DNA from: Bacteriovoracaceae bacterium
GTDB lineage: Bacteria; Bdellovibrionota; Bacteriovoracia; Bacteriovoracales; Bacteriovoracaceae
Assembly: GCA_023954635.1 (NCBI GenBank)
Contig: JAGSHI010000004.1
Coordinates: 1,028 to 65,027 of the forward strand
DNA length: 64,000 bases
Reading direction: 5' to 3'
The position numbers and the translations under genes were made by a program. Shown here piece by piece: positions 2,317-7,665 of this stretch (its first letter is position 1; each line of letters starts with the position of its first letter). The notes below the pieces were generated by a model, which did no database searches, was not told where the DNA came from, and was given only the letters and a program-made list of their open reading frames with translations.

Positions 2317-3792
2317 ATGAAAGCGATTGCCTTACTTATCATCTTAATATTTTTTGCGGGAATCAAGGCCCATGGGAATACAGCTCTTGAGGCTAAGCTT
2401 CAAAGCTTTTATGAAAACCCAGCTCGCTTTATGAACACACTGCCTGTTAACCATCTAGAGGATAGAAAGTTTAGTCATAGAGAAATTCTTGAAAAGGATT
2501 TCGTAAGAGCAAAGAGTCACGTTAGAGATGAGATCTTAAATAATTTAGATCCATCTACTCCTGAGTATAACGACCGTGTGGAGTCGCTTTTTCAAGGTGA
2601 AACCCTTATTGAAACTTTACAGGAAATGGAAAGTTTAAAATTAACTGAAGCCGAGGTCATGACAAAACCATGGTCTGATGACTATTGGCCAATTTATCAA
2701 GGTATCCTTGGTAAACGTTATGCTGATGAAAGTTTTGCTTATAAAGATGACTGGAGTGAGTATCATCAGTACGTGATCGATCGTCCTTATATGATGATCT
2801 TTAAAAGTGGTAGAGATAAGGAAGTTGATGAGCTTGGTCCCTCAGAGAAGTACGATTTACTTTTTGGTGGAAATGTAAACCTCACTGGTAAGATGTGGAA
2901 AGAGGGAAAAACTTATTGGCAAAGGTATGGATCAGTAGAAACCTGGATGGGGATCTGTCATGGCTGGGCCCCAGCTTCTTTTTCATTAGCTAGACCAGAA
3001 AATGTTATTACCGTTAAGGCTTTTGATGGAAAAACGGATTTAAATTTTTACCCTAGCGATATTAAGGCCCTTGCTTCACTTCTTTGGGCCAATGTTAGAG
3101 TTCCCACTCTTTTTGTAGGTGGAAGGTGTAATGTTAAGAATCCAGAGACAGATGATGAAGGCCGAATCATTGATCAAGAATGTTTTGATACAAACCCGGC
3201 CACTTGGCACCGCGCTGTTGTTGAACAAGTAGGAAGAAGAGGGAAGAGTTTTGTTTTTGATGCGACTTATGATTATCAGGTTTGGAATCAACCGGTTATT
3301 TCATACGAATATACTTATTTTAATCCTCAAAGTCTTGAAGAGCCCGTTAGTTTAAAAAACGCAATCATCCCAATTGAAAAATTCGAAAGAGATGTCTTTA
3401 AGAAGTATCGAAGCTCAAAAACAAGGTATGTTGTAGGAATTGAGATGGATATCACTTATTTGGTTGAAACCGATCCAAGTCAACTTCCTTACGATGACGA
3501 ATCTCAAGATATCCACCGTACTATGAGTTATATGTACGATCTAGAGCTCGATAAAGACCTCAAGATTATTGGTGGAGAGTGGTACCAAAACTATCATCCT
3601 GACTTTATTTGGATGCCTAGACCCGGTGCCAGGGCCCAAAGTATTGGTGATTTCTCTATCGGAAATGAAGAGACTTGGAACTTAGACATGTCTGCACCTA
3701 AATCTTGGGCCAGACCAGCTGCCATCTCAGCTAAACGAGGACAACCACTTAGTAAAGTTGTAGAATTCCTTATTCAAAAAAGCCGTCAATAA
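2317..3792 (+). CDS. secreted transglutaminase-elicitor-like protein (oomycete GP42 / marine-bacterial TGase family)
   Basis: Signal peptide MKAIALLIILIFFAGIKAHG. GICHGWAPAS motif (Cys214, nt 2956..2958) resembles the catalytic Cys context. VWNQPVISYEYTY (nt 3280..3318) matches the first six residues of the Phytophthora Pep-13 epitope VWNQPVRGFKVYE. Confidence 0.65.
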   Translation: MKAIALLIILIFFAGIKAHGNTALEAKLQSFYENPARFMNTLPVNHLEDRKFSHREILEKDFVRAKSHVRDEILNNLDPSTPEYNDRVESLFQGETLIETLQEMESLKLTEAEVMTKPWSDDYWPIYQGILGKRYADESFAYKDDWSEYHQYVIDRPYMMIFKSGRDKEVDELGPSEKYDLLFGGNVNLTGKMWKEGKTYWQRYGSVETWMGICHGWAPASFSLARPENVITVKAFDGKTDLNFYPSDIKALASLLWANVRVPTLFVGGRCNVKNPETDDEGRIIDQECFDTNPATWHRAVVEQVGRRGKSFVFDATYDYQVWNQPVISYEYTYFNPQSLEEPVSLKNAIIPIEKFERDVFKKYRSSKTRYVVGIEMDITYLVETDPSQLPYDDESQDIHRTMSYMYDLELDKDLKIIGGEWYQNYHPDFIWMPRPGARAQSIGDFSIGNEETWNLDMSAPKSWARPAAISAKRGQPLSKVVEFLIQKSRQ

Positions 3793-3811: not shown

Positions 3812-5257
3812 ATGGGACAAGAAATAAGTAAGGTCGACTTTAGTAAAGCCGAATACGAAGAATTCAACAAGCGCTTAAGAGAAGAAACTAAAATACTAAA
3901 AAGTTATTTTGATCAAAACCTCTTCGAACCAGAAGATGGTCAGACCTGCACCTTTGGCGCAGAAGTCGAAGGTTGGCTGATCGATAAGAATCATATTCCT
4001 GCACCCAAAAATACTGAGTTTTTAGATAAACTTGGGGACCCCTTAGTTGTTGCTGAGTTGGCTCAATTTAATTTTGAGCTTAACTGTAATCCAAGATCCC
4101 TAGGAGGAAATAACTTAAAACTAATGGAAGAGGAGCTTGTTCAAAGATGGAAGGGGGCAAGAGATTGTGCCAAGTCCATGGGCCTTGATATTCTTAGTAT
4201 TGGAATTCTTCCTACCCTTAGAGATGATATGCTTAATCTTAAGTATCTCTCCGATCAAAATAGGTACGCTTCCTTAAATAATAAAATCATGGAGGGAAGG
4301 GATGGAGAGCCAGTTCACTTAAATCTTCATGGTCTTGATGAACTTCACGTGGATCATGATGATGTTATGCTCGAGGCTGCTGCCACAAGTATGCAAATTC
4401 ATCTGCAAGTAAACTTAAAAAACGCGGTTAGATACTATAATGCCTCGATGATTCTCTCTCCCGCAATAGTCGCGGCGGCGGGAAATAGTCCTTTTATGTT
4501 TGGAAAGGAGCTTTGGTCTGAAACAAGAATTCCAGTCTTTGAGCAGGCCGTGAGTAATAAAGTCTTTAGAGATAGGACTGGGAAGTTTGTAGAACGAGTA
4601 GGCTTTGGTTCTGGTTATGCCAGAAACTCTATGATGGAGCCTTTTCTTGAGAACCTAGATGGTTTTCCTCCTCTTCTTCCACTTCTTATGGATGAAGATC
4701 CTAAACAACTTCCACATTTTAAACTTCATAACGGAACTATCTGGCGTTGGAATAGACCACTTATTGGAGTAGATAAAAATAATATTCCTCATTTAAGACT
4801 AGAACATAGAACTCCTGCAGCTGGTCCCACCATGGTGGATAGCATGGCGGATATTGCTTTTTATCTTGGTCTAACAGAATCACTTGCTACTGAGGAAATT
4901 GCACCTGAAGAAAAATTGGATTTTGAAACCGCGAGAAAGAACTTCTATGAAGGAGCTAAACTTGGACTTGAGGCCGATATAAAGTGGATCGATGGCAAAG
5001 TTTGGAATCTTCAAAAATTAATTCTTGATGAGCTAATTCCAAGGGCAAAAGACGGTCTTTCAAAACAAAATTTTGATGAAAAAGATATTAATTATTATAT
5101 GGATGAGATTCTTCATTCTCGAATCTTAAGTGGGCAAAATGGAGCGAGTTGGCAAAAGGCCTTTGTTCATACTCATGGAACTTGCTTTCAAGAAATGACT
5201 GAAGAATATTTAAAATGGCAAAATAAGCAAGTTCCAGTTTCACAGTGGAATGTATAA
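3812..5257 (+). CDS. glutamate--cysteine ligase family (GCS2-like carboxylate-amine ligase) protein
   Basis: 481-aa ORF with GCS2-like segments (FGAEVEGWLID, ELAQFNFELNCNP, SMQIHLQV, AAAGNSPF). No signal peptide. Starts 20 nt after the preceding gene. Confidence 0.6.
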   Translation: MGQEISKVDFSKAEYEEFNKRLREETKILKSYFDQNLFEPEDGQTCTFGAEVEGWLIDKNHIPAPKNTEFLDKLGDPLVVAELAQFNFELNCNPRSLGGNNLKLMEEELVQRWKGARDCAKSMGLDILSIGILPTLRDDMLNLKYLSDQNRYASLNNKIMEGRDGEPVHLNLHGLDELHVDHDDVMLEAAATSMQIHLQVNLKNAVRYYNASMILSPAIVAAAGNSPFMFGKELWSETRIPVFEQAVSNKVFRDRTGKFVERVGFGSGYARNSMMEPFLENLDGFPPLLPLLMDEDPKQLPHFKLHNGTIWRWNRPLIGVDKNNIPHLRLEHRTPAAGPTMVDSMADIAFYLGLTESLATEEIAPEEKLDFETARKNFYEGAKLGLEADIKWIDGKVWNLQKLILDELIPRAKDGLSKQNFDEKDINYYMDEILHSRILSGQNGASWQKAFVHTHGTCFQEMTEEYLKWQNKQVPVSQWNV

Positions 5258-5271
5258 GTATTGGAGAAAGT

Positions 5272-5721
5272 ATGAAATTGATTTTGATAATAGGACTTAT
5301 GGGTTTACTGACTTCTTGCGCTTCTAGTAGCGATAGGCAGATAGAAGAAGAAAAAACACATGTTCGAAAAAATATGTCTAAAAAAGAGATGAGCGATAAA
5401 ATGATCAAAATTTTAGAATCATCTAAAAGGTTAACTAAAAAACAAAAAGAAGATTTTTTAGTTCTTCACTCAAATGTTAAACAGGATGTGACCGTTGTTA
5501 ATGATGAGCTAAGAAGACTTAAAATCGTCTTGTTCCAGACTTTGGCTAAAGGTGAGTATAAAAGAAAGAAAATTGATCTTATTAAGAAAAAGATTGTGAA
5601 GCAGTATAATAAGAGACTCAATATTATGTTTGATGCCTTATACAAGTTTCAAAAAATTCTTGGTGTTGGGTCAGGTGACTTCTATCAAAATGAATGGTTC
5701 CCAATTCATTTTACGTTGTAA
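5272..5721 (+). CDS. lipoprotein with LTXXQ motif (Spy/CpxP/ZraP-like periplasmic protein, tentative)
   Basis: ATG at 5272 with GGAGAAAG RBS. Lipobox LLTSC. Lys-rich helical sequence containing RLTKKQKEDF. Confidence 0.45.
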   Translation: MKLILIIGLMGLLTSCASSSDRQIEEEKTHVRKNMSKKEMSDKMIKILESSKRLTKKQKEDFLVLHSNVKQDVTVVNDELRRLKIVLFQTLAKGEYKRKKIDLIKKKIVKQYNKRLNIMFDALYKFQKILGVGSGDFYQNEWFPIHFTL

Positions 5722-7035: not shown

Positions 7036-7665
7036 ATGAAAACACTAACTCTACTCATTATCCTTCTTGGTTATTCCTCAAATGCTTTTTCTGGTGGTTA
7101 CTTCACTGTTAAAGATGGGGTGATTTCAATGGTGCCAGAAGAGCGCACCCATAAGATTAAAGACTTTAGTACAGATGGTTGCTCATCATTTCCAGATGGC
7201 TTCATTCCCACTCAATCAACTGAATGGCTCGATTGCTGCATCATGCACGATGTGGATTATTGGGTAGGTGGAGAAGAACATTTAAAAGATAAGGCCGATG
7301 AAGAACTAGGTTATTGTGTAGCAAATGTTTCTAACTCATTATTAGGACTTTCAATGGATCTTGGTGTGCAGGTTGGCGGTGTTCCTTCACCAATGTCTTG
7401 GCGTTGGGGTTATGGTTGGGATGCTATTATTGGTTATAACCCTCTTGATACCAAACAATTAACATCAGCAGCCTCCAAGTACGATACTGTAATTGACGCG
7501 ATCATAAGTGAAAAAGAACTTTTGGATGGTGATCAAAAATTAAGAATTAAAGAAAAACTTCATATGAAATTAGTAGAACTTTTACCTTACTTAGGAAAAG
7601 ACGAAAAATCTAAAGAGGCAGAGTATGACCGTCTCTTAGAAAGGATCTATCAGTCTTTTAAGTAG
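7036..7665 (+). CDS. secreted protein with CCxxHDxxY (phospholipase A2-like) motif, function tentative
   Basis: Signal peptide MKTLTLLIILLGYSSNAFS. DGCSSFPDG...LDCCIMHDVDYW resembles the His-Asp catalytic motif context of secreted PLA2 families. Confidence 0.4.
   Translation: MKTLTLLIILLGYSSNAFSGGYFTVKDGVISMVPEERTHKIKDFSTDGCSSFPDGFIPTQSTEWLDCCIMHDVDYWVGGEEHLKDKADEELGYCVANVSNSLLGLSMDLGVQVGGVPSPMSWRWGYGWDAIIGYNPLDTKQLTSAASKYDTVIDAIISEKELLDGDQKLRIKEKLHMKLVELLPYLGKDEKSKEAEYDRLLERIYQSFK

Follow-up and report, generated by a model that had tools for sequence, protein, structure and literature searches.

A 64,000-nucleotide window of a Bacteriovoracaceae genome (assembly GCA_023954635.1, contig JAGSHI010000004.1) contains an open reading frame (ORF), 2317..3792 on the forward strand, whose product resembles GP42, a transglutaminase of the oomycete Phytophthora, including the segment of GP42 known as the plant-immunity epitope Pep-13. 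The locus raises the question of whether this bacterial protein is a true relative of GP42, what activity it would have and what the Pep-13 resemblance means. The source organism is a Halobacteriovorax-like, uncultured marine predatory bacterium. The preferred answer, to which a probability of about 0.6 is given, is that the gene encodes an exported, catalytically competent papain-like thiol enzyme of the GP42 family, most likely a cross-linker of proteins.

Homology to GP42 and predicted fold

A Pfam search with the translated ORF returned a single strong match, to the family TGase_elicitor (PF16683), with an expectation value (E) of 8.3e-42 and a score of 143.7 bits against a gathering cut-off of 25. 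The match envelope covered residues 95-445 and profile positions 11-343 of 361, which made the profile comparison proposed in the first-pass annotation a significant one. When the protein was compared with PDB sequences using HMMER, the only real match was 3TW5, the GP42 structure from Phytophthora sojae (E 7.6e-30, residues 100-445). No Pfam match to PF01841 (Transglut_core) was obtained at E <= 1, so the protein is not to be placed in that family, and no NCBIfam family model matched it.

An AlphaFold2 model based on 45 homologues had a mean predicted local distance difference test (pLDDT) score of 87.6 and a predicted template modelling (pTM) score of 0.85. In a Foldseek search of the PDB with this model, 3tw5_A was the sole significant match (E 8.5e-17, probability 1.00, template modelling score 0.65 when normalised to the target), all other chains having E > 0.3. 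The predicted fold is therefore compatible with the GP42 crystal structure, and the earlier proposal of a bacterial GP42 homologue is borne out by both the profile score and the sole significant fold. The resemblance of the window protein to GP42 is homology, not chance.

Conservation of the active site

GP42 is an exception among papain-like enzymes in that its catalytic His does not lie on a beta-strand and directly follows the Cys in a 'CH' motif; this His is paired either with an Asp from a second helix close by or with an Asn located on strand beta-2 (PMC10318531). In the HMMER alignment to 3TW5, Cys214 of the window protein was aligned with the Ser of the C290S crystal construct and His215 with GP42 His291. 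Cys214 lies in the motif GICHGWAPAS (nt 2956..2958), 108 residues upstream of Val322, and its proposed role as nucleophile is supported by its alignment with GP42 Cys290, by the adjacent His and by the conserved Asp248.

Conservation was determined from a joint alignment of 82 bacterial and 13 eukaryotic homologues. The pair Cys214-His215 was invariant in 82/82 bacterial homologues, and Asp248 was invariant in all 82 bacterial and all 13 eukaryotic sequences. Ten positions held the same residue in >=95% of the bacterial rows and in >=90% of the eukaryotic ones; with their GP42 equivalents in brackets, numbered using the 3TW5 chain offset of 162, these are C214 (C290), H215 (H291), D248 (D318), H298 (H368), W323 (W393), N324 (N394), P326 (P396), E421 (E482), H427 (H491) and D429 (D493). 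In the AlphaFold2 model Cys214 opens helix 214-223 in a papain-like arrangement and Asp248 opens helix 246-259, and this conservation and placement suggest that Asp248 is the triad Asp that would pair with His215. As all family-conserved polar residues are kept, the window protein retains whichever residue completes the GP42 triad. The family profile, the fold and a Cys with an adjacent His and a conserved Asp, the features on which the GP42 assignment had been made to depend, were thus all found.

The Pep-13-equivalent segment

Pep-13 represents a type of microbe-associated molecular pattern that parsley recognises, as does the potato receptor PERU. The substitution W2A nearly abolishes its recognition, and the importance of Pro-5 was reportedly noted by Nürnberger in 1994. 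Mutagenesis of GP42 by Brunner and colleagues in 2002 is said to have found the Pep-13 segment to be required for transglutaminase activity as well.

In the alignment to 3TW5, Pep-13 residues 1-6 coincide with VWNQPV of the window protein and are identical to it. Trp-2 and Pro-5 are both present, in agreement with the first-pass annotation, and positions 7-13 read ISYEYTY in the window protein versus RGFKVYE in Pep-13. The motif is not a special trait of this protein. V322, W323, N324 and P326 were invariant in 45/45 sequences of the first alignment, with Q325 in 44/45, and the V, W, N and P were invariant in 95/95 sequences of the joint alignment. The invariance of these four residues indicates that the Pep-13 identity reflects a family-wide constraint, not an oomycete link and not a shared epitope. 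In the model, residues 324-335 form a long strand of the central sheet, and conservation of the Pep-13 core presumably serves enzyme structure or function. Such constancy is consistent with a plant receptor that targets a part of the enzyme which cannot readily change.

Gene structure, export signal and protein features

The ORF comprises 491 codons without interruption, and the earlier description of a secreted 491-aa product carrying both motifs at these positions was matched in full on re-reading. The N-terminus, MKAIALLIILIFFAGIKAHG followed by N, was recognized by inspection as a Sec signal peptide with a basic n-region, a hydrophobic core and a c-region of small residues, and without a lipobox Cys; residues 2-17 form a helix in the AlphaFold2 model. 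The sequence AGGA is located 8 nt 5' of the ATG. The guanine-plus-cytosine content of the gene is 39% versus 36% for the genome, a composition that therefore looks native, and a scan for promoters and terminators around the gene gave no signal exceeding shuffle expectation. The window copy is chromosomal and single-domain, with approximately 45 extra C-terminal residues relative to GP42. Its cysteines number three, at positions 214, 271 and 289, and Cys271 and Cys289 probably form a disulfide.

Between the signal peptide and the catalytic domain lies a putative pro-region. Residues 21-40 were modelled as two helices with pLDDT 85-94, and L28, F31, P35 and P43 are conserved; they are followed by a linker in which pLDDT fell below 50 at residues 48-56, 64-66 and 73-84. 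Mature GP42, taken to begin where the 3TW5 chain does, starts opposite approximately residues 81-85 of the window protein, at the end of this low-confidence linker, and in a full-length P. sojae paralogue a KR dibasic site immediately precedes the mature N-terminus. Alignment positions 79-80 are [RK]-[AS] in 76/82 bacterial sequences.

Table 1. Positions of the gene, of its predicted protein features and of the downstream gene in the 64,000-nucleotide window (CDS, coding sequence).
Feature	Coordinates (nt)	Strand	Residues	Basis
CDS, secreted TGase_elicitor (GP42-type) protein, 491 aa	2317..3792	+	1-491	ORF, PF16683, 3TW5, Foldseek
Predicted Sec signal peptide, cleavage at about AHG/N	2317..2376	+	1-20	Inspection
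Putative pro-region, conserved helices 23-39 then low-confidence linker	2377..2577	+	21-87	pLDDT, conservation
TGase_elicitor catalytic domain	2599..3651	+	95-445	Pfam envelope, 3TW5 alignment
Cys214-His215 'CH' catalytic motif, N-terminus of helix 214-223	2956..2961	+	214-215	GP42 alignment, conservation, model
Asp248, candidate third triad member (GP42 D318 equivalent), N-terminus of helix 246-259	3058..3060	+	248	
Cys271...Cys289 loop, probably disulfide-closed	3127..3183	+	271-289	Sole remaining Cys, each >=90% conserved
Pep-13-equivalent segment VWNQPVISYEYTY, leads into beta-strand 324-335	3280..3318	+	322-334	GP42 alignment, conservation, model
His427-Pro428-Asp429, family-conserved motif	3595..3603	+	427-429	81-82/82 bacterial, 13/13 eukaryotic
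Divergent GCS2-like carboxylate-amine ligase, 481 aa, cytoplasmic, without signal peptide	3812..5257	+		Pfam GCS2, 31 bits

Distribution and phylogeny of the family

Homologues of GP42 have been regarded as restricted to oomycetes and some Vibrio (PMC4915311), and the first-pass annotation likewise placed the family mainly in these groups. This view is outdated. A word-seeded search recovered >1,690 homologues, labelled 'hypothetical protein' almost throughout, and an exhaustive HMMER search of 1.84 billion representatives recovered 2,218 clusters (50% identity) at E <= 0.001 and 647 at E <= 1e-30. These belonged mainly to Bdellovibrionota, Myxococcota, Thiotrichales and cable bacteria, with other groups also represented. 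Genomes with a full-length relative at 42-56% identity include those of Bacteriovoracaceae, Halobacteriovoraceae, Bdellovibrio, Oligoflexia, Nannocystaceae, Polyangia and Enhygromyxa, and also of Thiothrix, Thiolinea, Thiofilum, Leucothrix, Candidatus Electronema (a cable bacterium) and Hahella. A contig of 'MAG: Halobacteriovorax sp. bin.43' (L004) carries a 100%-identical copy of the protein in a near-identical locus. The window genome itself has three family copies, the other two being C69:2501-4003 and C157:16739-18286, and the family was present in 21/41 related genomes, some related Bacteriovoracales genomes having 10-14 matches each. The window protein is thus one unexceptional representative of a bacterial family that is very large and uncharacterised; no paper tying TGase_elicitor to Bdellovibrionota was found in a literature search.

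The oomycete and chytrid homologues grouped as a single clade in each of two maximum-likelihood trees, separated from the bacteria by a long branch, with Shimodaira-Hasegawa-like approximate likelihood ratio test (SH-aLRT) support of 99-100. The bacterial sequences comprised a 'type A' of about 490 aa, including the window protein and its two paralogues, a Vibrio owensii plasmid protein, Hahella, Thiotrichales, Myxococcota and cable bacteria, and a 'type B' with a shorter catalytic domain, found in related Bacteriovoracales and frequently fused to ankyrin repeats. The phylogeny against Vibrio and oomycete members that the first-pass annotation had envisaged therefore places the window protein in type A together with Vibrio, a genus represented here by the one plasmid homologue, and apart from the oomycetes. 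Within type A, the window protein and its C157 paralogue belong to a 13-member subclade (SH-aLRT 97).

The breadth of the bacterial family is at odds with reviews in which homologues occur only in oomycetes and Vibrio and the oomycete gene was acquired from Vibrio. Now that the databases contain thousands of bacterial sequences of the family, from predators as well as filamentous groups, there is less reason to single out Vibrio as the donor.

Gene neighbourhood

All ORFs in 80 related loci were clustered to survey the neighbourhood of the family. In 34/80 loci a gene for a clostripain-like peptidase (Peptidase_C11) lies directly downstream of the TGase-like gene (for example L009:7557-8942 and L018:7534-9246), and in 32 of these 34 it starts no more than about 40 nt from the end of the TGase-like gene or overlaps it, the other two being looser. 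All 34 C11-linked loci are from Bdellovibrionota or Myxococcota. The single C11 gene of the window genome, C69:907-2493 on the reverse strand, adjoins the C69 paralogue; its product has a signal peptide together with the catalytic motifs GHG and DAC. No description of a gene pair of this kind was found in the literature.

In eight loci, all from the window subclade, a secreted protein of approximately 260 aa is encoded directly downstream in place of the C11 peptidase (L005:6764-7573, L007, L008, L012, L014, L072, L074 and L078). This protein family had no Pfam or NCBIfam match. Two tandem homologues are present in the window genome (C91:5333-6112 and C91:6303-7001), distant from the TGase-like genes. 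Neither a C11 gene nor a gene of the 260-aa family stands beside the window copy, their representatives in this genome being those on C69 and C91.

Clostripain-type peptidases cleave after Arg or Lys. On the pattern of conserved residues and gene order, type A GP42-like enzymes could be zymogens that the co-encoded C11 peptidase activates by cutting the linker at the [RK]-[AS] site, a tentative idea and, on present evidence, a doubtful one. The basic residue is kept in 34/34 C11-linked versus 40/45 unlinked loci, a weak association. Were the idea correct, the gene pairing would represent a route of enzyme activation.

The window gene is instead followed, after 19 nt, by the gene for a GCS2-like ligase, which is preceded by the Shine-Dalgarno-like sequence AAGGAGAGG and for which no NCBIfam equivalog or PDB relative was found. 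The TGase-like/ligase pair and an upstream CBS-domain gene recur in L084 and L085, the contigs of the two closest orthologues (65-67% identity), and the ligase is absent from all other related loci save the near-identical L004. The ligase itself occurs in 8/41 relatives; it is adjacent to a TGase-like gene in none of the other seven, three of which lack a TGase_elicitor gene altogether. The ligase was accordingly rejected as a general partner, adjacency being limited to the narrow window lineage, and its rarity and non-adjacency elsewhere identify it as a lineage-specific neighbour, not a functional partner.

Some further features of the surrounding genes were observed. A short ORF of below 60 aa at 579-755 on the reverse strand lies between bfr (44-520) and an ORF at 957-1418; at the corresponding position in L084 a 60-aa Fer2_BFD gene was called beside a ferritin-like gene. 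Two forward-strand genes of the window, 7036-7665 and 5245-5721, encode secreted proteins or lipoproteins without a Pfam match. The 158-aa lipoprotein of these two is matched by two paralogue-like proteins (34-41% identity) encoded in L005, downstream of the GP42-like gene of that locus.

Predicted function and alternative explanations

The evidence above demonstrates that the protein belongs to the family, has its fold, conserves the catalytic residues and carries an export signal, and a mechanism can be proposed from this by analogy with GP42, to our knowledge the sole assayed family member and a transglutaminase. The protein is probably made as a pre-pro-enzyme in which the signal peptide is followed by a docked helical pro-segment, by a flexible linker that extends to approximately residue 87 and by the catalytic domain, and it would act beyond the cytoplasm on envelope or extracellular proteins. 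Cys214, at the start of its helix, would serve as nucleophile, with the adjacent His215 as general base and Asp248 on the neighbouring helix orienting His215. Attack of Cys214 on a protein-bound glutamine would give a thioester, from which the acyl group may pass to lysine or another amine, forming a transglutaminase cross-link, or to water, resulting in deamidation. The Trp-rich VWNQP segment is conserved together with the catalytic residues. Acyl transfer of the transglutaminase type is considered the most likely chemistry for the window protein, at a little better than even odds.

Several points weigh against this reading. No assay of any bacterial family member was found in the literature, and over the core the protein shares only 29% identity with GP42. 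The branch between the bacterial and eukaryotic clades is very long, so the chemistry could differ, and many papain-fold proteins described as 'transglutaminase-like' are hydrolases. No Ca2+ sites were identified in the window protein. In addition, D-P-S takes the place of the [RK]-[AS] linker site in the window protein and its three closest orthologues; with this change, no C11 neighbour and a ligase gene downstream, the window lineage may be a derived branch that is differently regulated or constitutively active.

The same fold and Cys-His-Asp site could belong to a hydrolase (a protease, isopeptidase, amidase or glutamine deamidase) exported to digest prey. The papain-like superfamily contains both hydrolases and transferases (PMC10318531), the up to 14 family matches per genome in related Bacteriovoracales resemble digestive arsenals, and the frequent coupling with a C11 peptidase gene would fit such a role. 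Against this stand the transglutaminase activity of GP42, the retention of all residues that are invariant in the family (three of them Trp located within or next to the catalytic and Pep-13 motifs) and the equal frequency of the family in Thiotrichales and cable bacteria, which are not predators, so that a digestive hydrolase is rated unlikely, if still to be taken seriously. The same intact residues (Cys214, His215, Asp248 and the remaining invariant polar positions) argue against a protein without catalytic activity that would retain only the fold and have a structural or adhesive role; pseudo-enzymes are common in expanded families, and with no specific support beyond this the proposal is very improbable here.

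Two further explanations start from particular features of the locus. If the GCS2-like ligase were co-transcribed with the window gene, a gamma-glutamyl compound made by the ligase might be transferred by the exported enzyme onto envelope components in a gamma-glutamyl pathway. The short intergenic gap with its Shine-Dalgarno-like sequence and the retention of the pair in L084 and L085 despite differing outer flanks would be in keeping with this, as would the textbook knowledge that both enzyme types handle gamma-glutamyl amide bonds; however, the ligase lies beside a TGase-like gene in no other related locus, its distribution among relatives is as described above, and its lack of a signal peptide places the two proteins in different compartments, making the pathway improbable. 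The VWNQPV identity might also stem from a specific oomycete link, either recent transfer or selection for a plant-immunity epitope, as all six leading residues, Trp-2 and Pro-5 among them, are those of Pep-13. This is scarcely credible given that the motif is invariant in 82/82 bacterial homologues, that identity to GP42 is 29% versus 40% over the full length to the Vibrio homologue, that the eukaryotic sequences form one long-branch clade (SH-aLRT 99), that the gene composition is native and that the host is a marine bacterial predator without evident plant contact. Recent transfer from oomycetes is ruled out by the trees, identities and composition.

An exported GP42-family thiol enzyme therefore remains the preferred reading. 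Because filamentous bacteria that are not predators also have the family in abundance, a predation-specific role, such as cross-linking of the bdelloplast or prey envelope, is unlikely; a more general function in proteins of the envelope, sheath or matrix is judged no less likely. Fusions in relatives, judged by their domain composition, point to an enzyme that may be directed to surface glycans or proteins: a ricin-type lectin fusion is encoded at L086:4377-6212 on the Vibrio owensii plasmid, and ankyrin fusions with up to six Ank_2 matches are encoded at L089:2638-5184 (relative G020) and L090:1902-3959 (relative G010). If bacterial members proved active in amine incorporation, the family could constitute a second large class of bacterial transglutaminases.

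Comparison with known transglutaminases

The canonical transglutaminases of PF01841 (factor XIII, TG2 and TgpA) share with the window protein the papain-like superfamily and presumably acyl transfer through a Cys thioester. In these enzymes the His is on a beta-strand, whereas in the window protein it is adjacent to the Cys and a PF01841 match is absent.

The transglutaminase of Streptomyces mobaraensis is a zymogen whose N-terminal helical pro-peptide is removed by a separate secreted protease. It offers a functional analogy only, as a secreted papain-like thiol enzyme that was absent from the Foldseek and Pfam matches of the window protein, itself a putative zymogen. The rearranged triad of the Streptomyces enzyme is noted in PMC10318531.

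The Vibrio owensii protein WP_233902700.1 (plasmid NZ_CP025798) and the window protein share 40% identity over the full length, the N-terminal pro-like region, the motif VWNQPVI and membership of the type A clade. Unlike the window protein, the Vibrio protein is plasmid-borne and, at 611 aa, carries a C-terminal ricin-type lectin domain. Vibrio homologues of GP42 were reportedly described by Reiss and co-workers in 2011.

GP42 (3TW5) differs from the window protein in several respects: identity is 29% and confined to the core, GP42 has more than the three Cys of the window protein, and the window protein has its own conserved N-terminal helices and no known plant link. The two nonetheless have the same Pfam family and fold, the CH motif, the conserved Asp and VWNQP, and GP42 is likewise secreted with an N-terminal region preceding the mature domain.

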